A stretch of DNA of 51,448 nucleotides from Escherichia phage BEK12B. The notes under the pieces are model-generated. The model was not told the DNA's origin and made no database searches. It saw only the letters and a program-made list of their open reading frames with translations. The position numbers were made by a program, and so were the translations under genes. The DNA is taken from sequence record MN158215. One strand, written 5' to 3'. Shown in pieces: positions 1 to 51,448 of this stretch (positions within the stretch are counted from its first letter, which is position 1; each line of letters starts with the position of its first letter).

Positions 1-155
1 CTTCTATACCAATAAATAGACCGTGCTTCTTTTTTGTAAGGTTAACATCAAAATCATACATAGCATTTACTCAATTTAATAATGGTGGGAAGCACGCAAT
101 AAAGATAGAAAAGTCCGACAATCAAGGTGAGGTATTTGTTTATGCTTTTAGCAAT

Positions 156-501: not shown

Positions 502-528
502 AAAGGGGGCTATGCCCCCTTTTTTTTA
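502..528. terminator. bidirectional intrinsic terminator between J-like gene and ORF 156..497
   Basis: aagggggctatgccccctt hairpin followed by T8 on plus strand and A/T stretch on minus. Confidence 0.6.
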
Positions 529-14487: not shown

Positions 14488-14506
14488 ATAGCATTTTTTG
14501 TTAAAC
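14488..14506 (+). promoter_or_regulatory. inverted (antisense) copy of the conserved ATAGCA-TTTTTTGTTAAAC element
   Basis: plus strand ATAGCATTTTTTGTTAAAC followed by CATAAT; lies between minus-strand decoration and capsid genes. Confidence 0.4.
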
Positions 14507-14524
14507 GTGCAACATAATTTTGTG

Positions 14525-16646: not shown

Positions 16647-17411
16647 TTACTCTCCTTTACTATTCCAATCTGGAATCGCCCAGCAACGGCAACCCCACGG
16701 CTCACCAGGGAAATCATGAATTGCATCAAGAGCTATTCTTTTACCTTCCCATAACACATGCTGCAAGCGCTCTCTATCATCCAACATTCCATGCCAGAAA
16801 TAATGAGTTACCTTAGCATCATAAAGGCGCTGGCGCATCAGGCGACTATTCCACGCGCCGATAATGTTTTCTGATCTCGTTTTACCCCAGGAGCTATAAA
16901 CAGCAAATCTCTTTTCTGCAAGATCATTAACCTGTTTATCATTGCTTCCGCGAAAGTTTGCATTGCGAATGTTTGTTGACCAGTCAGACACAATATTTGT
17001 GAACAACTTCTTTAGCGATGATTCTGTAAGTCCGTGCCATTGCCCGTAAAGCGTCTGATACCACTCCTCGTTAGCGTTAGCGCCAACCGCGATCAAAACA
17101 ATTACCGCCGTGTTATCATTTCCGCCAGTTGACTTTGCAACATTTATGAACTGCTTCGCATTGAATTTATAGATGGTCAACGCGATTGCAGGAAGAGTTG
17201 AAATAATGCCAGCTATAAGGTCAGTTGCCAGGCTGTTAATTTCATCTTCTGCGCTGTTAATCTCATTATCTGCTGCGTCAAACTTCATCGCTTTTGTACG
17301 CTTGCGCATGAGAACTACCAGATCCCTAATTGCCTCCTGAATTGAGCGGCTAAATTGCCGCTCGCTTGCTTCAGGAAAGCGCCATTGTTTAACGACGCCA
17401 TTCACTTTCAT
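16647..17411 (-). CDS. head morphogenesis / minor capsid protein
   Basis: 254 aa ORF directly after portal with overlapping stop/start. Confidence 0.5.
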   Translation of the reverse strand: MKVNGVVKQWRFPEASERQFSRSIQEAIRDLVVLMRKRTKAMKFDAADNEINSAEDEINSLATDLIAGIISTLPAIALTIYKFNAKQFINVAKSTGGNDNTAVIVLIAVGANANEEWYQTLYGQWHGLTESSLKKLFTNIVSDWSTNIRNANFRGSNDKQVNDLAEKRFAVYSSWGKTRSENIIGAWNSRLMRQRLYDAKVTHYFWHGMLDDRERLQHVLWEGKRIALDAIHDFPGEPWGCRCWAIPDWNSKGE

Positions 17412-18691
17412 TACTCATTCCCCTGTGTGCCTGGCTCCGGCTCCGATGGCTCCGGCAGCTTGATTTTATTAGTGTCCTTTAGTTTAACGCTTGGGGCGAT
17501 TGCTCGCAACGTGTCGCGCGCTTCTTCAACATCAAGGAACTGACCATCAATAGCCTTGCTGATTGAGTCGATATTCTTATTCAGAATTTCAGCCTGATCT
17601 TTATCGCTAGGTACGCTCAAAGGTGAAAACTCAATGCTCCACTCCTGCTCACTAATGATGAACGGCAATAGAAATTCAAGGATAGGCTTGTAATCCTCGA
17701 CGCGTTTTCGTTCAATCAGCTTATAGAATGTTTCAAGCGCCGTGTTTTGGCTTGCGCTAACGCCGCCAACGTTTTTGTTTTTCAGGATGATTTCATGAAT
17801 ACCTGAAAGGGAAACGATGCGATCCATTTTCTTTTCCAAGAAAGAATCAACGCCGCTGATGTCAGAATTAAGAACATCATATTCCTCATCCTCAGCATCA
17901 ATACCAATTGCTTTTCCAACACCGCCATCGTCGTCAACCTGCGCAAGTCTCAGGCGTGCCGCGCTAACACCTTCCTCATCATCGCACAAGTCAGCAAGTC
18001 CTTTAGCCTTCCATACAGCCTGCTGTTTCCTCCGCAATAATTGCGTTGCCAATGTTTCACAATAGTTATAATCAACAATAGCCTCAACAAGTCGCTTATT
18101 CAGAACTGACTCACCCCAGCCATCATTGCTGCGTCGCTTTGCGTTAGGTATCCGCTCACCGTCGATAATGCAAACTCGCGTGTAGTGTACCTGGTATTCC
18201 GGCAAGTCTCCGCCTGGCGTTACAGTGTAAAGCACTGGCTCACCATAGCGAACCTTGCGGGGATTAGTTTCGCGCGCCTCAACGCGAATCTGATAACGAT
18301 CGTAAACGCGAACATCTTCCAGCATGGCCCCAGGCTTTACAGGTGATTTGAGCGCCCGCCCATCCTGAACAAGAGCAATGATTGCAGATCCGCCAAACAA
18401 ACGCGACCAGCAAAGCGCATCAATAATTTTTGCATTCAATCGCTTTTCATCCCACAAAGAACGGAATGCCGCCTCGTCTGCCACTCCGTCAACAGTGAAG
18501 CCAGGGGAAACCATTTCCTCTGGCACTACGTCAATAATCCTTTTTGCTAGTCCGTCTTTTTCGTAAAAGTCAGCAAGTGTCTTGTATGGCATTGATTGCA
18601 TGTAGAATGGTTGCTCTACTCGCGATTTGCAATTCTCGCCTTTAAAGATCTCGTTATAGCCGTCAGTCTTAACGATTCGTGATTTACTCAT
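17411..18691 (-). CDS. portal protein
   Basis: 426 aa ORF directly downstream of terminase large subunit; acidic C-terminus. Confidence 0.75.
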   Translation of the reverse strand: MSKSRIVKTDGYNEIFKGENCKSRVEQPFYMQSMPYKTLADFYEKDGLAKRIIDVVPEEMVSPGFTVDGVADEAAFRSLWDEKRLNAKIIDALCWSRLFGGSAIIALVQDGRALKSPVKPGAMLEDVRVYDRYQIRVEARETNPRKVRYGEPVLYTVTPGGDLPEYQVHYTRVCIIDGERIPNAKRRSNDGWGESVLNKRLVEAIVDYNYCETLATQLLRRKQQAVWKAKGLADLCDDEEGVSAARLRLAQVDDDGGVGKAIGIDAEDEEYDVLNSDISGVDSFLEKKMDRIVSLSGIHEIILKNKNVGGVSASQNTALETFYKLIERKRVEDYKPILEFLLPFIISEQEWSIEFSPLSVPSDKDQAEILNKNIDSISKAIDGQFLDVEEARDTLRAIAPSVKLKDTNKIKLPEPSEPEPGTQGNE

Positions 18692-20921: not shown

Positions 20922-20928
20922 TAGTTGG

Positions 20929-37102: not shown

Positions 37103-37448
37103 NNNNNNNNNNNNNNNNNNNNNNNNNNNNNNNNNNNNNNNNNNNNNNNNNNNNNNNNNNNNNNNNNNNNNNNNNNNNNNNTCTTCAAGGAGTGGAGAAG
37201 TAAGAGCAAGCGCAGCACCGATAGCGACGGACACGATGCTTTTTCTTGCGCNNNNNNNNNNNNNNNNNNNNNNNNNNNNNNNNNNNNNNNNNNNNNNNNN
37301 NNNNNNNNNNNNNNNNNNNNNNNNNNNNNNNNNNNNNNNNNNNNNNNNNNNNNNNNNNNNNNNNNNNNNNNNNNNNNNNNNNNNNNNNNNNNNNNNNNNN
37401 NNNNATACGAAGCTGGCAATTGCAATTGCCGTTTGTCCTGNNNNNNNN
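37103..37448. other. N-masked gap containing fragments duplicated from 36762..37075
   Basis: three N runs (79, 153, 8 nt) separating exact copies of holin/endolysin sequence. Confidence 0.9.
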
Positions 37449-37576
37449 ACGTTGCAGCGTTCAAAAAATCTTTCATATTTAGATCCTCTTTATTCAAATG
37501 TCAATAGTGCTGAAAAAATAAATAAAAAAAGGAGACTTAAAAATCAAGCCTCCTTATAAGTTAATGTTTTATATGG

Positions 37577-37746
37577 TCATTCTACTGGCGAAAAAGTCAG
37601 ATAATAGCCGTGTAGTGGTGCGATAATCGCGCTACCTTGTCCGTCGCGGATCTCATACATCCCGCCAGGGATTGCTACCGACGTGTAAATCAGGCCGACG
37701 GTGTAGGGCAATTGCTTAGATGTGTTTCTGGTGCAACGTACTTTCA
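37577..37746 (-). CDS. hypothetical protein
   Basis: 56 aa from MKVRCTRNT, start adjacent to phosphoesterase stop. Confidence 0.3.
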
Positions 37747-37748
37747 TT

Positions 37749-38867
37749 TTATTTATCTGCCATTTCAGGATAAAACATAAAGCGTCCGATTTCGCCGTGT
37801 TCTTTGTCGTAAATGATAACCGCAGCACGGCGACGGGAACGCCAACCGCCTCGCGCGGCGTATGCGTCTTTAGCTGCCATCGTGCTATGTACTTCAACAA
37901 TGCCTAGCGATGTTTCTGTTACAGTCTGATGATGAAAATGCCCTACGTGCGCATACATAGTTTTTGAGTTTCCAAAGTCCTCCCGCCAGTCTGCTGCGCA
38001 CATCATTAGCAATGTTTCCGGCTTTCGGACGGTGTGACCGTGATGATATGCAAGGAATGTTTTTCCGTACTGCGTATGGTGAACCACTCGCGGCGATACA
38101 TCAACGTAAACGCGAGGCTCTTTTTCATATGCCGCCGCCATAGCTGCACGTAACCAGATCATGCCGCTTTGGTCATGGTTGCCCTCAATTATCTGGATCT
38201 CGACTTCTTTGTGTTTTTTGAGCATCAACTCAATGGCTCGACGGACGGCACGAATTGCAACGTAAACTAATTTTGCGTATCGGCTATCTTGATCCAATAC
38301 GTGACCGCTTGCAGGAGTTACCGCTTCCAGGCCGTCACTGTGAAGCATGTCGCCGCCAATCAGCAGCACTGCTTTCTCGCTGAACGGGGCGCAGGCCACA
38401 GCATAATCGAAAAAGTCATTCATTACCTTCTCTGCCGTTGATGTATCCCAATTCTCGCCGCATTCGTGCTTGTGCGCCATAGCTCCCAGGTGCATATCAA
38501 AAACGGGGTAAAGGGCAAGGCTTTCTCTGTATTTTATTGTTTCTTCTGGTGTCGGATCTACACGAGGTAATTCTTCGGTAAAAGCGTCCATAGCTGCGCG
38601 CATCAACGCTTCCAGTTGCTCTTTGTCCTTACTGGTCTTTGTCCATTTGAGGATCACGTTACCTTCTTTGTCGGTCATGACCGATTCGCCGTGAACACCA
38701 AAACCAGGCGTTCCTACAGTGGTTATTTTTCCCTGCTTTGCCAGTCGTGCCGCTCGGCGCTCGACGCTGCGAACATTCAGGCCGTATTCCTCAGCAATCT
38801 GTCGATAGCTCTTACCCTTTAATCGCTCATGCGTGAATTGCTCGTCGGTTATCTTGCTTTGACTCAT
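37749..38867 (-). CDS. metallophosphoesterase with N-terminal HTH domain
   Basis: calcineurin-like motifs DMHLG, GGDMLH, EGNHD, YHHGH, VGHFHH; N-terminal SYRQIAEEYGLNVRSVERRAARL helix-turn-helix. Confidence 0.7.
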   Translation of the reverse strand: MSQSKITDEQFTHERLKGKSYRQIAEEYGLNVRSVERRAARLAKQGKITTVGTPGFGVHGESVMTDKEGNVILKWTKTSKDKEQLEALMRAAMDAFTEELPRVDPTPEETIKYRESLALYPVFDMHLGAMAHKHECGENWDTSTAEKVMNDFFDYAVACAPFSEKAVLLIGGDMLHSDGLEAVTPASGHVLDQDSRYAKLVYVAIRAVRRAIELMLKKHKEVEIQIIEGNHDQSGMIWLRAAMAAAYEKEPRVYVDVSPRVVHHTQYGKTFLAYHHGHTVRKPETLLMMCAADWREDFGNSKTMYAHVGHFHHQTVTETSLGIVEVHSTMAAKDAYAARGGWRSRRRAAVIIYDKEHGEIGRFMFYPEMADK

Positions 38868-38966
38868 GATGTTTCTCCTATTGGTGCATTACGATACTAT
38901 ACATGATAGCGGTCGCAATGATAGCGGGTAGCGGAAGATATAACAAGCGCCACATGATAATAACCC

Positions 38967-39233
38967 TCATTTCTTGTAATATTTTTTAGGCTCGCGAACT
39001 TTTGCCATCTCTGCCTTGTAGTCAATTTTTGTTGGTATGGCTGGAACGCGTACCATCTTACGCGGCTTTTCCTTGAGGAAAGTCATTTTGCCGCCGCCGA
39101 TTACGCTGATGTCGGCAATATCAAAATATTGCGCGATCTTCTTTATGTCCTCAGCCATCCCCATTTCGTTTATATGTTGCCAGACTGCTTCACGCCCTTG
39201 CTCAACTCTCATGATGATAATATGCCTCCGCAA
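38967..39233 (-). CDS. hypothetical protein
   Basis: 88 aa ORF (true start possibly internal Met). Confidence 0.4.
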   Translation of the reverse strand: MRRHIIIMRVEQGREAVWQHINEMGMAEDIKKIAQYFDIADISVIGGGKMTFLKEKPRKMVRVPAIPTKIDYKAEMAKVREPKKYYKK

Positions 39234-39437
39234 ATTCTAATGGGTAGTGACCATATGCAACGCGAAGTAGAATCATTGCAGCGCCCCAATAAAGCTGCAT
39301 ATTGTTTTTCGTTCCACCTTTTACCGCCTCGCGTGCGGTTTTTTGCGCCTGGTCAAATGCTTTCTTGCTGTATACTACCATTTTTATTTCCTCATGTTTG
39401 TTTCGTTGAAATAATTATGCCCGACACAAGGCCGGGC

Positions 39438-39459
39438 GTTTTAACAAAAAGTGCTATTA
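39438..39459 (-). promoter_or_regulatory. conserved element copy plus hairpin and CATAAT
   Basis: TAATAGCACTTTTTGTTAAAAC after TAA stop of 39457..39714; gcccg...cgggc hairpin then CATAAT. Confidence 0.55.
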
Positions 39460-39714
39460 GTGGATCATTCCGTTCTGAAAATTCCACGAATCGACAAATT
39501 CTTGCATGTCATTTCTGATTTGTTCGTGCCATTTTTCAAGTGGGAGTTTTTTTGTCTCCTCAAAGCTCATATCTAATGCGCTTGAAAATTCCCACGGATC
39601 GCAATCAATCATCTTTTTCACGTTAGGGTTTTTATCAAGTGCATCGCATACCATAGCGCGATACAAAAGAAATTCGCCATCTTCATTAAGTAAAACTCTT
39701 CTTTCTTTCTGCAT
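39457..39714 (-). CDS. hypothetical protein
   Basis: 85 aa ORF after Dam gene. Confidence 0.45.
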   Translation of the reverse strand: MQKERRVLLNEDGEFLLYRAMVCDALDKNPNVKKMIDCDPWEFSSALDMSFEETKKLPLEKWHEQIRNDMQEFVDSWNFQNGMIH

Positions 39715-39718
39715 GGTT

Positions 39719-40420
39719 TTAGCTCCGTTTCCGTGCGCGACGTTCGGTTACAGAAGGACAAATATCGCTGATCTTAACGTATCGCGTTTTCTGCTGCTCA
39801 CCTTCTTTAAGTTCGCGCATGATGAAAATAACGCTTCCTTTGTTGTTTCCCTGCACTGGTTTACCTGTAAGAGCCGAGGTAAACGCCAGTCGTCCGGTGC
39901 GGGAATATTCTGTTCCGTCCTCCTGGTAAACTTCGCCAGTGATCCAGATGATTTCCGCTGCTCGCTGTTGCGCTTCATAAAACCATCCTGTTGATGTGTC
40001 GCAAGGTAACAGAATGTCGATCTGGTTATTGTACTCCATTTGCTCAATCGCTTTCTTAACAAATGGAGTAATATTGCTGTACGGTGGATTCAGCCATATA
40101 TGCTTATTACTACCCCACAAACGCTTTAAGCAGTTTGTTTCCTTGCTATAGAACTTCTCGCAAACTGCGTTTTCCTGGCTTGCTGCCGCGTCGAGATCGT
40201 ATTCACCAAATTCTGATTCCATCCACTCCACAATCTCTTGAGGCGTGCTCCACATATCGCGCACAACGTCCGGCGTATTGCTGCCGTTATAGCGGTTGCC
40301 AGTCACTTTGAAATATTGATTTGGTTTAACAGCCTGGTAATGACCACCAGTAGCAAGAGCATTGCCAATGAATGTTTCGCGTTCTATTTGTTCAAATGTC
40401 ACTTCAGTTTCTTTGCTCAT
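39719..40420 (-). CDS. dam: DNA N6-adenine methyltransferase (phage Dam-like)
   Basis: NPPY catalytic motif (WLNPPYS) and upstream DLDAAAS AdoMet-like segment. Confidence 0.75.
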   Translation of the reverse strand: MSKETEVTFEQIERETFIGNALATGGHYQAVKPNQYFKVTGNRYNGSNTPDVVRDMWSTPQEIVEWMESEFGEYDLDAAASQENAVCEKFYSKETNCLKRLWGSNKHIWLNPPYSNITPFVKKAIEQMEYNNQIDILLPCDTSTGWFYEAQQRAAEIIWITGEVYQEDGTEYSRTGRLAFTSALTGKPVQGNNKGSVIFIMRELKEGEQQKTRYVKISDICPSVTERRARKRS

Positions 40421-40478
40421 TTCTTAATTACCTGTTGCTTGTTGAACTGTTGTTATTATGGCGAAATCCTTCGCGCCT

Positions 40479-40500
40479 GTTTTAACAAAAAGTGCTATTT
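40479..40500 (-). promoter_or_regulatory. conserved element copy plus CATAAT upstream of Dam gene
   Basis: AAATAGCACTTTTTGTTAAAAC with TAG stop of VRR-NUC gene embedded; hairpin and CATAAT downstream. Confidence 0.55.
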
Positions 40501-40911
40501 CATCATGTATTCTACAGCGATCATGAATTGCTTATATCCGTATGTTACAGCGGCGAATCCGCCAATCTCACGCACACGTCGCAAGAAGGCTTTTTGCTCA
40601 TTGCTGACTGGTGAAGCCTTTCCCTTTCCGGACTTATTGACGCGCTTCATCTCAATAGCCGCAAACGGGTAGCGGCCTTTTGTACCAATCAGGATGATAA
40701 AATCGCTTACTCCCTTAACCAAACCGGACTGCTGATCAATCATCGCCGTTGCTTTAGACTTCTCATTCTCGTTTACCGTATGCCACGCCAGCAAATAAGG
40801 ATGAGCATAAGTCAACCACTGAAAACTATCTATCTGGTGATTAACTTCCCTTCTCGTGTCGGTTGGATCCCTTTCGTAAAACTCAAGATAATCGCCTTTA
40901 TCAGTTATCAC
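40495..40911 (-). CDS. VRR-NUC-type PD-(D/E)XK nuclease
   Basis: GVSDFIILIG...AAIEMK (D...E.K) and C-terminal QKAFLRRVREIGGFAAV pattern. Confidence 0.55.
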   Translation of the reverse strand: MITDKGDYLEFYERDPTDTRREVNHQIDSFQWLTYAHPYLLAWHTVNENEKSKATAMIDQQSGLVKGVSDFIILIGTKGRYPFAAIEMKRVNKSGKGKASPVSNEQKAFLRRVREIGGFAAVTYGYKQFMIAVEYMMK

Positions 40912-41378
40912 TGCTTCCTCCCGTGATTTTTGTGAAATCCTGAGCTAACTTCTGCAACTATTCTTGCATTCACGGCATCAATTATGCTTTTGAAGTCACC
41001 TAGTTTTTTGTTTGCAATTTTTGCCACCCATCTAGACTTACTTTTATCCCATGAAACACCAGCAAATCCGCTTTTGTTATTCCTATACGTAGCTTTGTTT
41101 TTCATGTTGTCGATTCTCATAACCAGACGCAAGTTTTCTATGCGGTTATCATCTCTTATGCCGTTAATATGATCTATTTCATATCCATATGGTATTTTTC
41201 CGTAGTGCATCTCCCATACTATTCTATGGATTGCAAATTGTTTCCCGTTTATGCAAACAAATCTGTATCCTTGGTGATGTAAAAATCCTGCCTCGTCACC
41301 TACTTTTATGCAGTTTGCTCTTTTGGTCGCCCAAAAAAGGCGACCATTATCATATGAAAAAATATCATGCCAATTCAT
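40908..41378 (-). CDS. HNH homing endonuclease
   Basis: EIDHINGIRDDNRIENLRL motif, N-terminal FSYDNGRLFW and C-terminal SGFHKNHG. Confidence 0.85.
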   Translation of the reverse strand: MNWHDIFSYDNGRLFWATKRANCIKVGDEAGFLHHQGYRFVCINGKQFAIHRIVWEMHYGKIPYGYEIDHINGIRDDNRIENLRLVMRIDNMKNKATYRNNKSGFAGVSWDKSKSRWVAKIANKKLGDFKSIIDAVNARIVAEVSSGFHKNHGRKQ

Positions 41379-43405
41379 TAAGCAAACTCCCGTTTAGCAA
41401 TGTTGTCCTCTCCTTTCGCCGTCTTGCGATGCGTCACGCGTACTGGCGGCATGATGTGATGGGCGTATGCCATAATTTTACGCGCATTTCTATAGCTCGC
41501 CACCATACCAGCAATCTTGCGATCCGGTATGTGCTGCAATGCTATTTTTCTCCATATCGTCCGGCAAATGTTGCTTTCTGACTCAGGGAAAAATCTTTCG
41601 TATGCCTTGAATGTTTCCCCATGATAATCAAGCTCATAGCAAAAAACGATACCTTTCTGGTTTTTTGTCATGTCAACACGGAACGATTTAACACTCATGT
41701 AATCGTTTTTCGTGTAGTGCTTGCCGCTTAACTTCTCGTTAGGATCGACAAGAGAAATATCGCAACAACGGCATACTCTCGCCACTACGTCGTTTTTTGT
41801 TCCGCAACCGCGATGAATAATCTTTTTCGTTCTCGGATCTACCTGGTCTGTGCATTCGCGATACGTCCAGAAGTGCTCACACCGTTTTCCGCTTTCGTCT
41901 ACGTGCATACAACGGCGCGCGTAGTAGCTATTCAGCGTCTTGCATATCGGGCAAGTTTTCGGATCTTTCCCGTTGGTGAATCGCTTCTGGAATTGCGCTT
42001 GCTCAAGTATAGGATCGAAATATAAATCCCCTAGCTCGTCCATCGTTCCGGCGAAATCAAGAACAAGGTGATCGTTTTTCGTGAATCCTTGCTCAATATG
42101 CCATTTCTTAAGCAGTCGCATACCGCGCCCTAAAAGCTGAATCAGCAACGTTAGTGATCTGATTTTACGCAGAATGACGGAAGTATCCCATAACGGCTGG
42201 TTAACGCCAGTTGTTAGCGCCTGAACCTGGAAAATGTATTTTACCTTTCCCTCGAATGCTTCCCTTAACCACTCCTTACGCTGTTTCTCTCCCGTCTTGC
42301 CAGTGATGATTCTGTATGTCGTGCCTGTCGGAAGTGCGGCAGCGGCCTCTTTACAGTGACGCTCACCTGCGCAAGTTACCAGCACGCCGTTGCGGTCTTT
42401 GCAGATCTCATGCACGCGTGACATGATTTTTTGCGTCATGGTTGCATCATTATGGATCTTCTCCTCCATCTTGCGCAGAGTTTTCTGGTCAAAGTCTTCA
42501 ACGCCGTCCTCACTGGATGCCTCAAACTCTGAAAGGTCATAACCTAGATCGCCAACGTCGCCAAAATTGGTAGGCACAACCGAGCCAAACTTGATAAGGT
42601 AGTTGGTATCAATATTAGTAACCTGTTCGCGCCAGAATCCTTTTTGTTTTTTATCTTCTACCAGTATTGGAACTACGCCGCGAAACTCCGATCCAGTCAT
42701 ACCAAAGATGCGCAGTTCATGACCATATGCTTTCCTGCAACGTCGCATCATTTCCATGATAATGACAGTGTATTGTGTGCGGCCTGTTCCCTCCATTGGC
42801 AAGCCATCCTCACCAATCAGGAATTCTTCGCATTCGTTATCGCTCGCTACGTCATAATCTGGATTTTGTACTTTTTCGCCTTTCTTTGTCGTCATTTGTA
42901 AAAATGACTCGTCTTTCTCTATGGCGTCGGCAAGGTCTTCCCAATCCACCTGGTGACACTCGTCAATCCCGATAACGTGCGGAACATAGTCGCCAAGCGC
43001 TTTAAACAGTCCATTAACTACAGTTCCCTCAGAACCAACAACGATCGGAAAGTATGCGCTTTTTGTCTTCAGTCCTGCACAATAGATGGAGTTCGGCACG
43101 CCAAGATTTGTTATCTCTTCAGAATCTTGATCCACAATCTCAGCCTGGCGAGCAAGAACCATCATTTTTAAGCACATTTTCCGGCACTGGTGAGCAACCA
43201 TTGCAAACATCAATGTTTTGCCAGACGATACCGACGCTTTAACAAAGAATGGATGCTCATAATTTTTCATACGCTTTGCGATCTCAGCGTATGCAACGCA
43301 CTGGTAAGGGTAAGGCACAATATCGCCAACAGTGAATCGCTCCTGAATGGATTTAATTACCGCTTCACCAAGTGCTGATATTTGCTTTTCAATGTTTGGA
43401 ATCAT
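41378..43405 (-). CDS. superfamily 2 (DEAD/DEAH-like) helicase
   Basis: Walker A VSSGKTLMF, DEAH-like GIDECHQ; start at MIPNIEKQ after -10-like TATTAT and RBS AAAGG. Confidence 0.75.
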   Translation of the reverse strand: MIPNIEKQISALGEAVIKSIQERFTVGDIVPYPYQCVAYAEIAKRMKNYEHPFFVKASVSSGKTLMFAMVAHQCRKMCLKMMVLARQAEIVDQDSEEITNLGVPNSIYCAGLKTKSAYFPIVVGSEGTVVNGLFKALGDYVPHVIGIDECHQVDWEDLADAIEKDESFLQMTTKKGEKVQNPDYDVASDNECEEFLIGEDGLPMEGTGRTQYTVIIMEMMRRCRKAYGHELRIFGMTGSEFRGVVPILVEDKKQKGFWREQVTNIDTNYLIKFGSVVPTNFGDVGDLGYDLSEFEASSEDGVEDFDQKTLRKMEEKIHNDATMTQKIMSRVHEICKDRNGVLVTCAGERHCKEAAAALPTGTTYRIITGKTGEKQRKEWLREAFEGKVKYIFQVQALTTGVNQPLWDTSVILRKIRSLTLLIQLLGRGMRLLKKWHIEQGFTKNDHLVLDFAGTMDELGDLYFDPILEQAQFQKRFTNGKDPKTCPICKTLNSYYARRCMHVDESGKRCEHFWTYRECTDQVDPRTKKIIHRGCGTKNDVVARVCRCCDISLVDPNEKLSGKHYTKNDYMSVKSFRVDMTKNQKGIVFCYELDYHGETFKAYERFFPESESNICRTIWRKIALQHIPDRKIAGMVASYRNARKIMAYAHHIMPPVRVTHRKTAKGEDNIAKREFA

Positions 43406-43462
43406 TCTAAAACCTTTGAGTAATGCCATTTGGCGTGTATAATACACAATCATTAAATCATC

Positions 43463-43482
43463 GTTTAACAAAAAATGCTATT
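43463..43482 (-). promoter_or_regulatory. conserved element copy upstream of helicase gene
   Basis: AATAGCATTTTTTGTTAAACG then 18 nt then TATTAT within gtgtattatacac palindrome, then RBS and helicase ATG. Confidence 0.55.
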
Positions 43483-43494
43483 GGAGAATGAATA

Positions 43495-43968
43495 ATGAAA
43501 GAACAGCGAATCGCGGTATCAACTGGCAAGATTGACAAGCGCACAATTAATGGCAATAACGGAACCAGACGAGGCAAGGATAAGAAGAAACGCAAGCGCC
43601 CTACAGGATACTATGTTTTAAAAGATGAAGTGCGCGCCGGACTAAAAGCGCGACTTGACATCCTTATTGAGTATTACGGAAGTGTATCAGCAATGGCAAA
43701 ACGTCTTAACGTTAGCCAGCAAACTGTAAATCAGTGGCGTGTTCGCGGTATGATTTCAGCTGCTGGCGCTCAAAAGGTGCATAACGATTACAAAAAATAT
43801 GGATGTCAAGGCTATCGCGCATCATTCTGTCGTCCAGACCTGCGATTTGATTCCAATGGCAAACCGCTCACAAAGAGATGTGATAAGCGTGAAATGTTGC
43901 GAGTGGTAAGAATGTCAGATTATGAGCCTGGCGGATTCCTGTATAAACCTGAAAGCACTAATTGCTAA
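43495..43968 (+). CDS. HTH DNA-binding protein (candidate transcriptional regulator)
   Basis: segment SVSAMAKRLNVSQQTVNQWRVRG resembles helix-turn-helix; basic N-terminus; divergent from helicase promoter. Confidence 0.5.
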   Translation: MKEQRIAVSTGKIDKRTINGNNGTRRGKDKKKRKRPTGYYVLKDEVRAGLKARLDILIEYYGSVSAMAKRLNVSQQTVNQWRVRGMISAAGAQKVHNDYKKYGCQGYRASFCRPDLRFDSNGKPLTKRCDKREMLRVVRMSDYEPGGFLYKPESTNC

Positions 43969-43975
43969 AAACAAT

Positions 43976-44010
43976 GCCTGGCATGATGTTATCATCTGTC
44001 AGGCTTTTTT
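43976..44010 (+). terminator. terminator-like hairpin between HTH gene and primase
   Basis: gcctggcatgatgttatcatctgtcaggc followed by TTTTTTGTTT. Confidence 0.45.
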
Positions 44011-44023
44011 GTTTGAGGTGCAT

Positions 44024-44956
44024 ATGAACAACGAAAACTTTATGGTTTATCAAAAGGAAGATATTCTCCCATATATGCAGGGATTATGGCGTGAGGCGCT
44101 ACAAAGTATTTGCGGTCTTCCAAATGAAGTTTTTAACGGCAAGCATCAATCTTGCCCCCACTGCGGCGGAAAGGATCGCTTTAGATGGACTGATAAACTT
44201 GGAGATAAAAAAGGCGACGGAGGCGCTATCTGCAACGTGTGCGGGAACGATACTGGAATTGGTTGGATCATGAAGCTAACCGGAGAACCTTACAGCGAAG
44301 TGATCAATATTTTGGGTCGCTTTCTTGGAAAAGTTCCGCAGGACTATAGAATCAAGGCAAATAAGCGAGTATCTCGTGATTCTGGTTATTCGTTTGGGAA
44401 ACAGGCAAGCCATGAATGCTGCGAGCGCGTTATGTCAAAAACACTAAAACTTGATCGCACGCCGTTAAGCACCTATGAAGGGATATATCCTTCTGAAGAT
44501 GGTTATTATGAATGCGGCGTTAAAGATGGTCGATACATTCACGCGTTACCATGTTACCTGGTACATTCAGATGAAATTGATGATGAAATGTGCAATGTGC
44601 TTTTCATTGATGAAGAAGGTAATCAGTCTTTTCTAGCAAAGGACTACACGAGAGGGTCGATTGTTAGAACCGGAAGTACAGATAAGACTATCTATCTTTG
44701 CGTTGACTGGATTGATGCGCAACATATTCACCTTGCAACTGGTCAGGAGGTTTGGGCCTGCTTTGATGCAACTAACATTGAGATTGTAGCTTACAGGTAT
44801 AAAGGCAACAGAAGAATGCGAGTTGTCTGCAAGAGCACAGATCGTGACGCGATCATTGCTGCAGAGGAAAGAGGACTTGAAATTATGATGCCGATTAATG
44901 ATAATTACAGGCAAGGGATAGAGAGGAAGGTTTATAAACCTGAATTTCTTCTCTAA
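44024..44956 (+). CDS. DNA primase (zinc-ribbon type)
   Basis: CPHCGGKDRFRW...CNVCGND zinc-binding ribbon typical of phage primases; RBS GAGGTG. Confidence 0.6.
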   Translation: MNNENFMVYQKEDILPYMQGLWREALQSICGLPNEVFNGKHQSCPHCGGKDRFRWTDKLGDKKGDGGAICNVCGNDTGIGWIMKLTGEPYSEVINILGRFLGKVPQDYRIKANKRVSRDSGYSFGKQASHECCERVMSKTLKLDRTPLSTYEGIYPSEDGYYECGVKDGRYIHALPCYLVHSDEIDDEMCNVLFIDEEGNQSFLAKDYTRGSIVRTGSTDKTIYLCVDWIDAQHIHLATGQEVWACFDATNIEIVAYRYKGNRRMRVVCKSTDRDAIIAAEERGLEIMMPINDNYRQGIERKVYKPEFLL

Positions 44957-44973
44957 ATGTCACTGCTACTTTT

Positions 44974-44998
44974 ACCCCGCATTGCGGGGTTTTTTTTG
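44974..44998 (+). terminator. intrinsic terminator after primase
   Basis: accccgcattgcggggt followed by T8. Confidence 0.6.
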
Positions 44999-45055
44999 GC
45001 CTTAGCAAATGCTATTATCTGCATTGACATTAACATGCAACATTGGAGAAAGCGC

Positions 45056-47074
45056 ATGGCAATTTACAGAACAGGACAGGCGTCAATGGACGCTCAAGGC
45101 TATATAACTGGATACGACACAAAATGGCGAGAGCAACTAACACTCATTCGCCCTGGCGCGACCATTGTATTCTTAACTCAGCCGTTACAAATCGCTGTAA
45201 TAACTGAAGTTATAAACGATACAAGCATTCGTGCAATTACAACTGGTGGAGCGGTAGTTGCTCGCTCAAATTACGCGATCTTGATTCATGACTCAATAAC
45301 CGTTGATGGACTTGCTCAAGATGTAGCTGAAACGCTGCGATACTATCAGAGTAAAGAAACAATCATTGAGGAAGCTATAGAGTTTTTCAAAGATTTTGAC
45401 CTGAAGGCGTTACAAGATCTGGTAAATCAGATTAAGGATGCAGCAGAAAATACATCAGCCGATCGCGCTGCAACTGAACAACTTAAGAATGAAACTGTGT
45501 CAGCAAGAGACTCAGCAAAGCAACACATGACCGATGCTCAGTCTGCAAAGAGTGCTGCTGAAACTGCAAAGGCTGGCGCTGTTACTGCTCGCAATGAGGC
45601 GGAGGAATTTGCTAAAAGCCTGAATGCTGAAAACCTTTTACGCAAAGATGCAAACCTTTCCGATCTAACCGATGTTAATACAGCAAAGACAAATCTTGGA
45701 GTGCAAGGAGTTTTCTGTACTACAAGTACAGATGCTGGCAAGTTCAATCAGATTGCATCACCTGATGGAAAGTTAAGCATGTTTGTTGCCAATAATGGCA
45801 ATTGGGGTGTTCAGTCAACTACTGGTGAAGCGAAGCCTCTTGCTGTTGGGCGGGGTGGTACTGGTGCAACAAGTGCAGAAGGTGCAAGGGGTAATCTTGA
45901 AACGTTCCGTGAATCAAGGACCGCTCTTGGAGAAACAGATCTAAATACGCTGACTGGCGCAAAAAGCGGTGTGTATTATCAATCTGGAAACGCTGCCGCT
46001 ACACCTGGGCGTGGATACCCAGAGAGTTCCGCGGGAACACTTGTGGTGTTAAGAAACGGCGCAAGCGGCATTGATGGTTGTACTCAGATTTACTACCCAT
46101 ACAATAACAGCAACAGATTTTATATAAGAAAATATCTTGCAGGCAATCCAAGCCCATGGACAGAGTGGGCTGCATATGACCGACCAAACAATAGCCCTGG
46201 ATTTAGAGCTTCAATTGGCCTTGGCGTTAACGACAAAGTTCAGTTTAGTCAGGTTAAGGCGTATGGTACGAACGGCGTGTTTGCTGATGGTATAGAAAAC
46301 ACTCAGGGTGCAACCTTTACCACAAGGTACTATGATTCAGCCAATACGCATAAGGGACAAGGTGAATTTAGGGTTGATGCTAATGGAGTTGTGAACATTA
46401 TCAATAGGGCTACAAAATCAGGTGATGCAACTCATTTCTTTACATTTGATCGTGCTGGTCGCTTTTGGTCTCCGAGTGGAATTACGACCGCCACAAGCAT
46501 GAATTGGAATGATGGTAATAGTATTGTTAACCGTAGTTTGTTTATGTCCGGGCAAGTTAATTCACCAGCTAATAATGTGGTGTACGCAGGGATACACGTT
46601 GGATACAGTAATTCCTACGCAATGCAGATAGCGGCAAGAGACAATGGTTTTTACGGTAGATGCCTGGAGAGTAATAGCTGGAAGGACTGGTTGAAAATAA
46701 CAACCGCTGCCATATCTGATGAGAGCCTGAAGGATATTAAAGGCAATCTTAACGTTGACGGTGCATTGGATAATATTAACAGAATGGAATTTAAACTATT
46801 CCGTTATCTGAGCGATTCCCCTGAACGAAGCACAAGACGAGGTGTCATTGCTCAGCAAGTCAGGTTGATTGACCGCGAATACACGACAAAAGTCGGAGAT
46901 AAGTTGCATCTTGACACGACTCCGATGTTGCTTGATGGTCTGGCGGCCATCCAGGCTTTAACAAAACGTGATAATGAAAATAAGGAAAAGATATCCAGAC
47001 TACAAAAAGAGATTGAGGAACTAAAAGCTGTAGTTTCAGTGTTAATTAACAAGCAATCAACGCTTGAGGATTAA
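45056..47074 (+). CDS. lateral tail fibre with C-terminal intramolecular chaperone (peptidase S74-like) domain
   Basis: C-terminal [17 protein letters not shown]...GVIAQQV...LLDGL pattern matching self-cleaving chaperone domains; Gly/Thr/Ser/Asn-rich central region. Confidence 0.75.
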
Positions 47075-47089
47075 CAAAATTTAACCGAA

Positions 47090-47117
47090 AGGCGCGGCTA
47101 CGGCTGCGCCTTTTTTC
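47090..47117 (+). terminator. intrinsic terminator after tail fibre gene
   Basis: aggcgcggctacggctgcgcct followed by T6. Confidence 0.6.
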
Positions 47118-47330
47118 GTCTTTATGCCAGTTTCTTACATATCACTTACAAATGTTTTATATCTATTCCTGAAGGAAAAGAAAATGACGAAAAGTGAATG
47201 AATTGATCAGGTAGTTAAAGACCTGTCAGAGAGAGCGCACACAATAGCTGATGATGGTTATTCTCCAATATCAATAATGAAATCTGCAATGACTGATTTT
47301 AACGGAATAGGTAGCATGAGCTGCATGTTG

Positions 47331-47615
47331 TCAATAATGACTACCGGAAAGTTGAATGCGCATCAAACTGAACTCGCAAAGAGAATTGCTGTCTATGTAG
47401 TCAATTTCAACATCGCCTATCAAATAGCCTTCAATGAAGGCAACAGCAAGCCTGTGCGCCTGAAATCGCTCGCCATGGATGTTTATACCTATGTATCCAT
47501 TCCTAAGCGATCCGGCCTGTGAACCTTTCTCTACGCTCTGCGACGTGGGAAGAATCCATGTAAAAATTCCTGATTCTGCATCGTAGGATAGGTGACGCCT
47601 TGCGGCGTCAACCAT
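47331..47615 (-). pseudogene. degenerate HNH endonuclease remnant
   Basis: N-terminus LSYDAESGIFTW...FQAHRLA matches the HNH copies but catalytic region reads EIDYIDSNS and the ORF is truncated at 94 aa. Confidence 0.4.
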
Positions 47616-47658
47616 GTCTTTTGTTATATCTTTGTATCTTATATGTTAAAATGGGGTG

Positions 47659-48111
47659 TTAAAATGGGATGTCAGAATCAAAGTCCATAGGAGGCTGATT
47701 GCTTTGTCTTGGCTGTTGCGGTTGTTGCTGTTGATTCTGTTGTTGTTGCTGCCCCCATCCTCCTTGAGTTCGCTGCTGATATTGTTGCTGGCTTTCCCCG
47801 CGCTGACTGAAGATAAGATTTGCAAATCCTCCTGGCATTAAACTTGAATACAGATTTCCGTTATATTCACGCGTTTCAATGCGCAGCGTGTCGCAAGATA
47901 CAGAAATAACCTTGCCAACCTGGAATGCCTCATCATACCAACCCTTAAGACCTTCTGTTTTAGCATTAAAAAAGAAACTGTAGTTTGTATATTGCCAGTT
48001 TCCATCTTTATCTTTGTATCGCTCTGAAAGTTCAACCACATAAAGTGTGCTGCCGTTAGGCATTTGCTTTACTCGCGGCTCTTTTCGGATCTCACCAGTA
48101 ATAATATGCAT
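47659..48111 (-). CDS. ssb: single-stranded DNA-binding protein
   Basis: OB-fold-like N-terminal region, Gln/Gly-rich linker and acidic C-terminal tail DFDSDIPF. Confidence 0.8.
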   Translation of the reverse strand: MHIITGEIRKEPRVKQMPNGSTLYVVELSERYKDKDGNWQYTNYSFFFNAKTEGLKGWYDEAFQVGKVISVSCDTLRIETREYNGNLYSSLMPGGFANLIFSQRGESQQQYQQRTQGGWGQQQQQNQQQQPQQPRQSNQPPMDFDSDIPF

Positions 48112-48155
48112 TATTTATTCTCCTGCAAGAAAGGGGCGCAAGCGCCCCATGTCAA

Positions 48156-48812
48156 TTATTCAAAGTCAGTTATTCTTTGTGATTTTACTTGCTCGTCGTT
48201 TTTTGTGTCAACGTCTTGAGCGGCAAGATTTTGTTTTGGTTGCGCTGGATTAAATCCTCGTGCTTTTCCGATCTCAAGTTCTGCCTTGCGCTTTTCGTAA
48301 TGCTCTTTAATTACCTGCTTGCTTGCCGGATCGCTTGCCTTCCATGCTGATTTTAGCACTTCTTGTAATTCGTTTACGCTTTCGCATTTCTCAATGTCAC
48401 GCTTCCAGTCGTTTGCAGATTTAACGGCAATCTGAGCGTCATCGTCTGCCTGGCTTAAGCCAAATGCTGCTGCTGCTGCATAACGACGCGCGTATGTGAA
48501 TGCAGATCCGACACCTTGAGGATCGTTTTTAACTATTGGTAGCTCTGCGTAAAATTTCACCCACTGACCGGAAACATGAAGAACTGTTGTCTCAACTTTG
48601 ATGCGGTTAGGTTGTTCGCTTTCGATCATATCCTGCATCAACATTAGCGCGTTATCGTTCAGTGCTGGGGTGATTGCATCAAGTACGGCATCAAGTGTTG
48701 CGTAACGGTTTTTAAGGTGAGTGTTTTGCTTATCCTTCTTTACCTTTACAAACAAACTACGCGCCTTATGCAGTGCTGGTAAAACCTTGTCGAATTGCTC
48801 TGATAGTTTCAT
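48156..48812 (-). CDS. erf: Erf-family single-strand annealing protein
   Basis: [17 protein letters not shown] signature-like segment; located between exonuclease and SSB. Confidence 0.7.
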
Positions 48813-48857
48813 GATTAATCCCCGTAATTCATGGCGGCTTTCGCCGCCTTATTGCTG

Positions 48858-49136
48858 TTAATGTTTTGTTTCTTCTTTGGTGTGTAATTTAATCAGATTT
48901 TCCATCATGCGATCAGAACTTTCTTTTACCGCCTTGATTGCTTCCTCGTTGTCTTCGCTCATTGTTGCAATGAGTACGACGTTATCGACTGCATCCATTA
49001 CTTTTCTGATGTACTCCATTTCTTCTGCGCCTGCCGTTGGGTCAAGGGGCGCTACAAAGTCACGAAGCAACATAGCCATGCCAGTTGCAAAATTATTGAT
49101 ATGAACTGCTACCTCTGAAACTTGTTTGTTTTCCAT
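48858..49136 (-). CDS. hypothetical protein
   Basis: 92 aa acidic ORF between exonuclease and Erf. Confidence 0.45.
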   Translation of the reverse strand: MENKQVSEVAVHINNFATGMAMLLRDFVAPLDPTAGAEEMEYIRKVMDAVDNVVLIATMSEDNEEAIKAVKESSDRMMENLIKLHTKEETKH

Positions 49137-49217
49137 GTTTATTTCCTTACGCTTGTTGTTAACTTATGCGGTGAATTATAACACCGCATTTTTCATTTGT
49201 TTAGCTATTTGTGCTGT

Positions 49218-50276
49218 TTAAATAAGATATTGCTTAAACTGGCGTCGCACCCAATCAGGAGTATCAAGGCAAACCTCCGGCTCACCGTTTGAATACGAAG
49301 GCCAAACGTCATGATGCTGGCACATGGCAAACTGGTTAATCACGCTCATGTACTGAATGCGCCCAATCTTCAATTGCTCGTTGTTCATGCGGAAAGCCAA
49401 CGGCAAATAAGGCTCTTTCTTCTCTTGCGCTAACAGGCGCACAACTATAGGTCGCTTTTCTTCTGGATACGCTTTCCTGAATAAATCACATTGCAACGCC
49501 ATTTTAAGATAATAGCCGTGATTGTAAGCCAGGCGCATAAACTCAGCCGGATTCGCGCTCATTGTAGTTTTGTAGTCTGTGATCACAATGGCCTCTGGAT
49601 AAATAATATCGCGGCAAATCGGCTGACCTTTTTCATCGTAACCATCAATCAGCGTTGCGGTGACGTTCTTTGTTACGTCAACGTGATCGCATCGCACTTT
49701 GACTTTTACGCCGTTAATTTCACCGAACAACGATAATTCACGTTGTGCTGTCTTGCTATTCATGCATGCGTTATGTTCCGGTATTGATTCCAGAACCTGT
49801 CGCATTGCCACGCAAGCATCGTAATCTTTAGCTTCGATTAACTGAACCCCATCGGCCCTCGCCTGACTTTCTGCGATCATGTCGATTAACCACATGACGT
49901 TAAGGTCTTCTCCGCAGTCAACCAACATTTTTATAAGTTCAGGGTAAGTCTTTCCTGTTGTACCTTTCAGGCCAAATGATTTTAGCTTTGCAGCAAGCGC
50001 CGTTTGGCTGGTTATCAGATCCTTAAAGTCTTCTGGTGCTGGCGCACGGCGATAGGTTTTTTCGAAAAGCTCCTTGCTTTCAAAATTGGTATGCGACTGC
50101 GTACCGAAAACAAGTGCTTTGGTTTCCTGGCGAGGCTTGTACTTCCAGTACGCCGGGCAAGTGCTGTAAATCTCAGCCAGGCTGGAACCGCTGACGTATT
50201 CAGCCGTCCACGCGTTAGGATCATGATAAAGCTCATTGCTCATTTCTTCGCTAGTATAGGCGTTAAAATCACTCAT
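49218..50276 (-). CDS. PD-(D/E)XK recombination exonuclease (RecB/RecE-like)
   Basis: IITDYKTT and CDHVDV nuclease motifs; first gene of recombination operon; RBS GAGGAG. Confidence 0.65.
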   Translation of the reverse strand: MSDFNAYTSEEMSNELYHDPNAWTAEYVSGSSLAEIYSTCPAYWKYKPRQETKALVFGTQSHTNFESKELFEKTYRRAPAPEDFKDLITSQTALAAKLKSFGLKGTTGKTYPELIKMLVDCGEDLNVMWLIDMIAESQARADGVQLIEAKDYDACVAMRQVLESIPEHNACMNSKTAQRELSLFGEINGVKVKVRCDHVDVTKNVTATLIDGYDEKGQPICRDIIYPEAIVITDYKTTMSANPAEFMRLAYNHGYYLKMALQCDLFRKAYPEEKRPIVVRLLAQEKKEPYLPLAFRMNNEQLKIGRIQYMSVINQFAMCQHHDVWPSYSNGEPEVCLDTPDWVRRQFKQYLI

Positions 50277-50306
50277 CTTTAATGCTCCTCGTTGCTTTGT
50301 GTGTGC

Positions 50307-50334
50307 ATTGTAGCCATTTGGTTGATTTAGTCAA
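50307..50334 (-). promoter_or_regulatory. canonical sigma70-type promoter for recombination operon
   Basis: minus sense TTGACT - 16 nt - TACAAT, about 30 nt upstream of exonuclease start. Confidence 0.55.
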
Positions 50335-50460
50335 TAGTTGTTTTGTTTTTTCTGTTTTCTAAACGTTCTCAGATGGCAATAAAACAAATTTGACGCGTAA
50401 GTTAATGATTAATATGTGTTATTTTTCTTGTTCCCTTGTTCTATCAGATACGCCGGATTA

Positions 50461-50640
50461 TATACATACACATGAATGATGGCACATACAGATACTCAGA
50501 AAGAAAAATCACCACAAACAACCAAAACCACAAGAAACACAGATAACAAGAAAAAACAAATATACATACATAAATAAATAAACTATTGATTTTATATGTA
50601 TATATCTATTTTATTGATTATTTATTGTTCTTATGTTGGC
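50461..50640 (+). repeat. G-poor A/C-rich module B
   Basis: same ordered blocks as 28738..28930, with TTATTGATT repeated three times. Confidence 0.6.
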
Positions 50641-50701
50641 TAAGATTTGCGCTAAATTTACGCCGCCTTAAATCCGATAACACCGGAAAACAAAAAATAA
50701 C

Positions 50702-50722
50702 AAATAGCACTTTTTGCTAAAC
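50702..50722 (+). promoter_or_regulatory. conserved element copy plus TATAGT
   Basis: AAATAGCACTTTTTGCTAAAC then 18 nt then TATAGT, upstream of lipoprotein gene. Confidence 0.5.
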
Positions 50723-50777
50723 TCGGCTTGCCGGATCGTGTATAGTTACAGCCAACAACAACTAAGGAGTATTGAAG

Positions 50778-51053
50778 ATGAAAAAATTAATCGCAGTTAT
50801 CGCCACCGTAGCCGCCCTGACCGGATGTTCTTCTTCGCCTACTGGCAACTTCAAGGAGATCGATTGCACGGCAAAATTTAACGTTAAAACATTCCCTGTT
50901 AACGGATTCCATGAAGTTAAAATTAATGCGGTCCGCGAAAACAGATTCAGCCAAAAGCAATACAGGTTGAGCGTTGACAATAAAGAAGTTAAATTTATCA
51001 ACCGTTGGCAAGATGAAAGAAAATTCATTGATTTGAGGTGCAAAAATGGCTGA
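50778..51053 (+). CDS. lipoprotein, candidate superinfection-exclusion (Cor/Llp-like) protein
   Basis: signal peptide with lipobox LTGC; RBS AAGGAG; located in fibre/receptor-binding locus. Confidence 0.55.
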   Translation: MKKLIAVIATVAALTGCSSSPTGNFKEIDCTAKFNVKTFPVNGFHEVKINAVRENRFSQKQYRLSVDNKEVKFINRWQDERKFIDLRCKNG

Positions 51054-51324
51054 ATATGGGTATGCAATATATGATGAGCAAGGTAGAAATGTTACTGGCC
51101 TTTTAACTCCAGTTTTTTTCTTGGATAAATTTACTCAATCATCTGGCAGTAAGACCTACTCAAACAGGCCTCCAGGTAAGTCGTTGAAAGCAATATATGT
51201 TGGAATGAATTCGTGGCGCGGAGGAGATCCTGGCGCTCCAAGTTTAGGTGTAAGTGGTGATACCGTTACATGGAGCGGACTTTCTGGATCTGACTCAAGA
51301 TATATATATACTTTTTGGGGGTAA
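51046..51324 (+). CDS. hypothetical protein, paralog family with 156..497 and 51327..
   Basis: 92 aa; N-terminal pattern shared with neighbouring ORFs. Confidence 0.4.
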   Translation: MAEYGYAIYDEQGRNVTGLLTPVFFLDKFTQSSGSKTYSNRPPGKSLKAIYVGMNSWRGGDPGAPSLGVSGDTVTWSGLSGSDSRYIYTFWG

Positions 51325-51326
51325 TA

Positions 51327-51448
51327 ATGTACGGGATGAGCATAAAAAAACCAGACGGATCATTGTGGTTAAGTCCAGATTTCACTCCTGTTAACCTTAT
51401 AGATAAAGGTAAAATATCAGCAAAAACAGGAACCGTTTTTAATACTTC
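51327..51448 (+). CDS. hypothetical protein, 3' end truncated by window edge
   Basis: ATG at 51327 directly after previous stop; ORF runs off the window. Confidence 0.3.
   Translation, partial: MYGMSIKKPDGSLWLSPDFTPVNLIDKGKISAKTGTVFNT

Follow-up and report, generated by a model that had tools for sequence, protein, structure and literature searches.

Small open reading frames lie at both ends of the DNA analysed here, the 51,448-nt record MN158215 of Escherichia phage BEK12B (hereafter the window), and the question is whether they belong to a single locus and, if so, what that locus does. An earlier note, made from the letters alone, had described at the right end a lipobox lipoprotein ORF followed by two small ORFs, the second of them truncated, and at the left end, beside a J-like gene, an ORF whose N-terminus resembled theirs. 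It suggested a circular genome opened inside a receptor-binding locus. We consider it likely that the locus is the host-recognition cassette of a T1-like phage, halved when a circular assembly was linearised inside it.

We compared the window ends with near-identical genomes. Escherichia phages BEK7, BEK1-23 and BEC3 show ~100% identity to the window, and the opening point is different in each record. Both window ends match BEK7 (MN158209, 51,031 bp) at 100% identity, at 20846-21994 and 19650-20849, two matches that overlap by 4 bases in BEK7 coordinates. The tetranucleotide CTTC stands at both ends of the window, positions 51445-51448 duplicating positions 1-4. When the ends are abutted with both copies retained, the third ORF is frameshifted (…NTSFYTNK, then a stop). 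When one copy is dropped, a single 615-nt ORF of 204 aa appears, its reading frame open across the join. Joining the ends and re-calling the ORFs, as the earlier note had proposed, thus gives one 204-aa gene once the 4-nt duplicate is removed. BEK7 carries a CDS of the same length and position (QGH76947) whose DNA is 100% identical, and in both BEK7 and BEK1-23 the sequence continues across the junction, at 100% identity, within one 615-nt CDS.

The window boundaries are arbitrary because near-identical records are opened elsewhere and two of them read through the junction. The idea that the window ends are true genome termini, with the end ORFs as separate paralogous genes, draws solely on the linear look of the window, and we give it practically no probability: two records cross the junction with a single CDS, all three begin at another point, and the frame stays open over the join after removal of the duplicate. 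Fixed ends, which had been named as evidence against the circular reading, were not found at the window boundaries, and the proposal of a circular genome opened within the locus holds. The window is a complete circular assembly, arbitrarily opened, of a T1-like coliphage (Drexlerviridae, Tempevirinae). An N-rich, duplicated stretch at 37103..37448, the main difference of the window from the BEK7, BEK1-23 and BEC3 records, also points to automated assembly. The 4-nt terminal duplicate has a practical consequence, since simply abutting the ends of the record produces a frameshifted receptor-binding gene, miscalled as two or three small ORFs.

Once closed, the locus comprises three genes, not four. 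The first gene of the operon encodes a lipoprotein precursor of 91 aa (50778..51053, + strand), with AAGGAG 8 nt upstream of its ATG at 50778; a TTG at 50772 is a less likely start. The second gene (51046..51324, + strand) encodes a small beta-rich protein of 92 aa, and its start overlaps the end of the lipoprotein ORF by 8 nt, the ATG overlapping the stop codon. The third begins at 51327, 2 nt past the 92-aa stop. Its 5' part (51327..51448, + strand; codons 1-40 plus 2 nt) is cut by the window end, and its 3' part occupies 1..497 on the + strand, the true continuation being 5..497 and bases 1-4 the duplicate. The lipobox ORF, the small ORF behind it and the truncated ORF running off the end were all placed correctly in the first reading. 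ORF 156..497 does lie beside the 3' end of the J-like gene, as that reading had it, but it is not a separate gene, its ATG at 156 being an internal Met of the 204-aa gene. The three non-lipoprotein ORFs are in fact two genes, the C-terminal half of the second having been taken for a third paralog.

A plausible Shine-Dalgarno sequence stands ahead of each of the three genes. The stop of the 204-aa gene is at 497; that of the J-like tail tip gene (526..4104, - strand, 1192 aa), whose 3' end faces the small genes, is at 526. All that separates these convergent genes is a predicted bidirectional intrinsic terminator (502..522, both strands; AAAGGGGGC-TAT-GCCCCCTTT), a 9-bp GC-rich hairpin with a T-run on the + strand and an A-rich run on the other, which, to judge from these features, can terminate both strands. 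At the opposite side, an AT-rich intergenic region of 500 nt (50277..50777) lies between a leftward exonuclease VIII gene and the lipoprotein gene. Ahead of the lipoprotein gene, a scan for consensus promoters gave none on the plus strand and promoter-like sites on the minus strand only; the operon promoter presumably lies within 50277..50777. By their spacing and orientation, the lipoprotein, 92-aa and 204-aa genes make up a predicted tight operon converging on the J-like gene.

Profile searches placed the two larger products in known families. The 204-aa protein matches phrog_425 over residues 1-204 (E 1e-50) and the 92-aa protein matches phrog_557 over residues 3-92 (E 6e-21), the PHROGs into which ST31 and ST32 of T1 fall, respectively. 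Pfam gave no match and NCBIfam nothing useful for either protein, and a PDB sequence search with profiles of all three locus families returned nothing meaningful. Homologues of the pair occur in Stx podophages (933W L0126/L0127, 52% and 46% identity) and in Nonagvirus JenP2, and Klebsiella T1-like phages harbor more distant homologues of the 204-aa protein. The names 'outer membrane protein' (92-aa) and 'membrane associated protein' (204-aa) come from an old T1 annotation and were rejected, as the proteins have no hydrophobic segment. Both lack a signal peptide or TM segment (maximum Kyte-Doolittle 15-residue window 1.1 and 1.4).

The N-terminal resemblance among the small ORFs can be traced to a short motif, [YH]G-x-x-[IF]-x3-4-G, which the 92-aa protein carries once (residues 4-13) and the 204-aa protein twice (residues 2-11 and 99-108). 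The copy at residue 99 is the apparent N-terminus of ORF 156..497, and T1 ST32 and ST31 carry the motif at the same three positions. Pairwise BLASTP was not significant between the 92-aa and 204-aa proteins, nor between the two halves of the latter. A motif model made from the internal copy only had the 92-aa N-terminus as its best non-self match in the six-frame window (E = 0.05), and leave-one-class-out motif models gave marginal cross-matches only (E 0.05 to 3). Candidate YG..G motifs in the J C-terminus (GLKVKDANG, GWRLDKNG) were rejected, the motif HMM having no match there. With shallow alignments, hhalign recovered the 15-residue motif only, at 5% probability. Deeper comparisons, using a 105-member family alignment from a representative search, aligned the 92-aa family with residues 1-96 at 65% probability (E 6e-5, 85 co-linear columns) and with residues 97-204 at about 86-87% probability (E 5e-6); the two 204-aa halves aligned with each other at about 86-87% as well (E 5e-6). 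These profile alignments lend moderate support to the view that the 92-aa protein and the two 204-aa halves are weakly homologous modules of ~95 aa. What survives of the resemblance first reported is a real short motif with homology at the profile level; three separate paralogous genes do not.

Other phages carry fused forms of the pair. In about 11 proteins of 307-325 aa, a 92-aa-like N-terminus is joined to a body resembling the 204-aa protein; the 92-aa profile detects them in hmmsearch at E down to 3.6e-7, and the 92-aa protein is homologous to the N-terminal ~85 aa of these ~320-aa chains. Pantoea phage Vid5 has one fused-type gene, adjoining J. The best reading, again with moderate support, is a three-module receptor-binding unit that is here split over two genes, with the 92-aa protein probably serving as the first module of the split receptor-binding protein, or as an adaptor. 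Three diverged copies of one ~95-aa beta module may function together, given that in other phages a single chain of ~320 aa contains them all.

We modelled both proteins with AlphaFold2. The model of the 204-aa protein, computed for a proxy of 99% identity from an alignment of 18 sequences, reached pLDDT 83.6 and pTM 0.79 and displays two beta domains, one at roughly residues 23-90 and the other at roughly 121-199, the motif segments being of low confidence. The 92-aa model is of moderate confidence (pLDDT 69.6) and has about six strands. Foldseek with the 204-aa proxy model gave no significant PDB match. Comparison of the same model with the receptor-binding protein (RBP) of phage Oekolampad (PDB 9rpt chain C) revealed structural similarity well above background, and as modelled the 204-aa protein shares the fold of this solved LptD-binding RBP. 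It does not belong to the Oekolampad-type family phrog_1265 (E 0.0085 over about 50 residues; BLASTP not significant). The 9rpt structure and its companion superinfection-exclusion (SE) lipoprotein Rtp45 (Rtp44/Rtp45) are described in 10.1101/2025.07.07.663478. The Oekolampad locus (bas18_0025 RBP, bas18_0026 SE lipoprotein) has the layout found here, an SE lipoprotein gene followed by the RBP gene, convergent on J. It differs in that the RBP is a single chain with LptD as receptor, whereas the window has two genes with no significant pairwise sequence similarity to it, and in that the SE protein belongs to phrog_4281, another family than the window lipoprotein.

The 92-aa and/or 204-aa proteins might instead be assembly chaperones of the tail tip or lateral fibre, or 'moron' proteins of the host membrane, and not virion RBPs. 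The PHROG and T1 database names lean this way, and so does a possible structural or chaperone-like role raised for the homologous proteins (Matusiak 2025, PMC12309495). On the side of an RBP role, the same study proposed that these 'Ig-like' and 'hand-like' proteins cap a J-like spike which itself has no receptor-binding domain, and its AlphaFold-Multimer models set the 'hand-like' homologue on the spike tip and on the receptor. A 2026 cryo-EM preprint on phi24B lists gp54 (204 aa) in the virion proteome and describes additional density at the tip of the needle; gp55, its small partner, went undetected in virions. Likewise, the Sp5 homologues of both genes (ORF72/73) fall outside that phage's nine essential late genes, the source being silent on individual deletion. 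We nevertheless regard a non-RBP role as very improbable. A signal peptide or TM segment is absent from both proteins, and homologues are reported to have low predicted membrane affinity (Matusiak 2025, PMC12309495). Furthermore, gp54 is found in virions, the modelled 204-aa fold matches a solved receptor-bound RBP, the alleles track receptor use, and the tip of J co-varies with the locus.

This co-variation is visible along the J-like protein, which overall is 95% identical to the J-like tail tip protein of phage KarlJaspers (Bas06). Identity to Bas06 is 98% over residues 1-900. Over residues 901-1092 it is 89%, against 62% to phage FritzSarasin (Bas04), and the last 100 aa reverse the order, with 89% to Bas04 and 80% to Bas06. 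Thus the final ~100 codons of the J-like gene (about 526..825) are inherited together with the RBP locus. The tip is also 59% identical to the J-like protein of JenP2 and 45% identical over 67 aa to the C-terminus of 933W L0125 (tblastn E 5e-6). Judged by these identities, the J protein is a mosaic of a Bas06-like body and a Bas04-like tip; as the RBP locus is Bas04-like too, the window is a recombinant of known parts. The pattern fits a cassette of J tip and two small genes moved by recombination. It would also agree with an RBP that docks physically onto the tip of J, a suggestion made in a 2026 preprint (10.64898/2026.04.02.716166).

Which receptor would such a cassette recognize? [quoted passage not shown] The earlier note's description of a receptor-binding and presumed exclusion locus beside the J homolog agrees with the published arrangement (Maffei 2021, PMC8594841). 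In the BASEL table, FritzSarasin and KarlJaspers are listed as BtuB-dependent, their receptor having been determined experimentally, and both have the three-gene arrangement convergent on J. Their loci (bas04_0023-0025 and bas06_0024-0026) contain the same genes in the same order and sizes (270-276, 276-279 and 615 nt) and show no real difference from the window locus, so that a comparison with related receptor-binding loci, also proposed at the outset, finds the same three genes in two receptor-typed phages.

Identity to Bas04 is 94% for the lipoprotein, 93% for the 92-aa protein and 87% for the 204-aa protein; the corresponding values for Bas06 are 56%, 71% and 63%, and at the DNA level the entire locus shares 91% identity with Bas04. 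The RBPs of Bas04 and Bas06 are themselves 66% identical and thus bracket the window protein. The 2026 preprint delimits the BtuB-specific RBP family by >30% identity and >99% coverage; the 204-aa protein falls within these limits, with 87% and 63% over 204/204 aa, as would the BamA-associated 933W homologue (46%). These comparisons indicate that the terminal receptor is likely BtuB rather than FhuA.

Homology-based receptor calls of this kind have a limit: the Stx-phage homologue is 46% identical over its full length, yet BamA is its reported receptor. Identity alone does not fix the receptor. The terminal receptor of this RBP locus could accordingly be another TonB-dependent transporter, or BamA, given the 41-46%-identical homologues in phages reported to use the latter. 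A literature search found no papers on BEK7, BEC3 or BEK12A, and no receptor reports for BEK7 or its near-identical relatives. We hold a receptor other than BtuB to be highly unlikely, since the RBP is 87% and 63% identical to those of two BtuB-dependent phages that share only 66% with each other, and the locus DNA is 91% identical to that of Bas04. From the locus one can directly predict BtuB as the receptor of this phage and of its near-identical relatives.

The T1 locus ST32/ST31/cor (FhuA-type, like gp22/gp23/cor of N15) shares with the window PHROGs 557/425, the YGxxIxDxxG positions and a small lipoprotein by J. In contrast, its large protein is only about 23% identical, and ST32/ST31 are co-directional with J with cor convergent, whereas the window genes all converge on J. 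Its lipoprotein is a true Cor and its receptor FhuA, whereas the mature part of the window lipoprotein is not Cor. The phi24B pair gp55/gp54, equivalent to 933W L0126/L0127, is a homologous pair after a tail protein with a J-tip-like C-terminus. These Stx phages differ in being short-tailed and temperate, with BamA as the reported receptor; their genes are co-directional with the needle gene, and no lipoprotein gene is present, lom following the pair.

We then considered whether the lipoprotein is an exclusion factor of the Cor/Llp type, as had been proposed. Its signal peptide, MKKLIAVIATVAALTG, is the only hydrophobic stretch and is followed by CSSS, with the lipobox LTG immediately before Cys17 and Ser at +2. 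Lipoproteins with Ser at +2 of the lipobox are sorted to the outer membrane by the Lol system. The mature part has two invariant cysteines (C30, C88). With Cor the protein shares a lipobox signal peptide, a small precursor (91 aa) and a location at the J/RBP locus. Its best PHROG match is Cor (phrog_1119, E 6e-8), a match that stems from the signal peptide only, and one relative's lipoprotein is annotated as Cor. Against the NCBIfam Cor model NF047972 it scores 18.5 bits, below the cut-off of 31. The mature residues 18-91 (74 aa) have no phrog_1119 match at E up to 10, whereas mature T1 Cor, used as a control, scores 3e-19, and the BLASTP alignment with T1 Cor is limited to residues 1-34. By these comparisons the lipoprotein is not a Cor homologue and is Cor-like in position and signal peptide only. 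The part of the proposal that concerns position and signal peptide stands, but the mature part bears no detectable similarity to Cor. Exclusion of FhuA-dependent phages would not be expected from a locus of the BtuB type.

Pfam assigned no family, with sub-threshold matches to the signal peptide only, and the PDB profile search found no solved relative. A tblastn search with the mature part matched 82 phage records, whose organism names are those of Escherichia, Shigella and mislabelled 'Campylobacter' phages; every record listed is a small siphophage, T1-like or Dhillonvirus-sized (37-53 kb). No homologue in T5-like or Stx phages was seen among the matches listed, and the 933W and JenP2 loci gave no match to the lipoprotein. 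On this distribution and the profile results, the lipoprotein is best described as a family of its own, at the site taken elsewhere by Cor and Rtp45.

From its position, lipobox and co-occurrence with the RBP genes, we presume that the lipoprotein is a superinfection-exclusion factor. It could also be something else: an o-spanin-like lysis component, an RBP assembly factor or a modulator of BtuB transport. That its mature domain is unrelated to Cor, that it has weak PHROG matches to Rz-like spanins and that it is co-transcribed with structural genes and not in an early operon would all agree with such a role, which we judge unlikely. It does not behave as an o-spanin in the profile search, where the spanin matches (E 0.04-0.09) are confined to the signal peptide region (residues ~1-45). 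Moreover, the lysis genes of relatives lie elsewhere, in a separately annotated cassette, with a u-spanin annotated in KarlJaspers. Rtp45, a lipoprotein of proven SE function, and its Oekolampad counterpart are encoded at the same place and in the same orientation, and among the matches listed the lipoprotein is confined to small siphophages that have an RBP of this type.

As a superinfection-exclusion factor, the lipoprotein would complete the following scheme. The 204-aa protein, probably together with the 92-aa module, would cap the tip of the trimeric J fibre. The cap would bind the extracellular face of BtuB, the vitamin B12 transporter, and so commit the phage to DNA ejection. In the infected cell the lipoprotein, once exported and lipidated, would be directed to the inner leaflet of the outer membrane, where it may bind the periplasmic side of BtuB and make it unusable for the phage's own RBP. 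With BtuB blocked, superinfection would be prevented and progeny would no longer be lost to cell debris, an effect that Llp has through FhuA and Rtp45 through LptD. The pb5/Llp system of T5 follows the same logic, a monomeric RBP on the central fibre tip and an adjoining lipoprotein that blocks a TonB-dependent transporter from the periplasm. T5-like phages differ in having no homologue of the window lipoprotein among the matches listed, and the RBPs of Demerecviridae have a distinct structure and are encoded elsewhere in the genome (2026 preprint, 10.64898/2026.04.02.716166).

The locus type is already published, and the genome is essentially identical to deposited records. The analysis refines the published picture in five respects: the 4-nt duplicate, the BtuB assignment, the fold match to Oekolampad, the split and fused forms of the RBP, and the non-Cor lipoprotein. 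The biological points among them, the fold of an LptD RBP in a BtuB-type tip protein, its fusion elsewhere and the non-Cor lipoprotein, leave that picture unchanged. A wider reading, to which we give slightly less than an even chance, is that the lipoprotein founds a BtuB-exclusion family unrelated to Cor and that the 92-aa and 204-aa proteins are a split RBP within one superfamily. If so, the lipoprotein would be for BtuB what Llp is for FhuA and Rtp45 for LptD. The tip proteins of T1 (FhuA), Oekolampad (LptD) and phi24B (BamA) would share one ancestral module and fold, and the receptor-specific families, described as unrelated in the 2026 preprint, would together be one superfamily whose members are split or fused.

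The J-like protein of BEK12B (gene at window 526..4104) has a mosaic structure. Residues 1-900 share 98% identity with KarlJaspers, and residues 901-1092 show 89% identity to KarlJaspers and 62% to FritzSarasin. Over the final 100 residues the order is reversed, with 89% identity to FritzSarasin and 80% to KarlJaspers. This pattern along J indicates a recombination break inside the gene, and thus that the tip of J travels together with the receptor-binding genes.

At the window ends, the last four nucleotides, CTTC (51445..51448), are the same as the first four (1..4). A simple end-to-start circular join that keeps this duplicate frameshifts the receptor-binding gene; the duplicate is probably an artefact of the assembler's circularisation. 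Beside the holin gene, window 37103..37448 contains three N runs, of 79, 153 and 8 nt, with exact copies of neighbouring holin and endolysin-region sequence scattered among them (source segments 36752-36821, 36941-36976 and 37013-37077). Relative to the near-identical genome BEC3, the stretch represents a net 436-nt insertion adjoining the holin gene, which most likely arose as an artefact of scaffolding or assembly.

Megablast alignment of window 37449..50566 with BEC3 gives 99.8% identity with a single gap of ~23 nt. This part of the window includes a 92-aa ORF (48858..49136, minus strand), flanked by the genes for exonuclease VIII and the recombinase and annotated as "tail length tape-measure protein" in both BEK7 and BEC3. 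Judging by the size of the ORF and its location within the recombination module, the name is almost certainly a mis-annotation. The BEC3 annotation also lists three homing endonuclease genes in the replication and early regions (BEC3 locus L010, 9189..9659, 14488..14874 and 17115..17633). Many MG0656xx records are named "Campylobacter phage", with C. jejuni given as host. These genomes, of ~47-50 kb, are 91-94% identical to the coliphage BEK12B, and their host labels look doubtful.

The 92-aa and 204-aa proteins also have single-chain counterparts. Homologs of ~310-325 aa (P0107, P0126, P0080, P0137 and others) carry a 92-aa-like module and a 204-aa-like body in one chain; in Pantoea phage Vid5 the fused gene (MG948468 20891..21868) adjoins J, the central tail fibre gene. 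In Nonagvirus JenP2 (KP719133) the two-gene pair occurs without a lipoprotein (L006 2717..3615), and 933W has a counterpart (L004 5768..6618). The large JenP2 protein is 61% identical to L0127, the large protein of 933W, but only 41% identical to the BtuB-type proteins. This closer resemblance hints that phages of the JenP2 type may use the same receptor as the short-tailed Stx phages, reported to be BamA, rather than BtuB.
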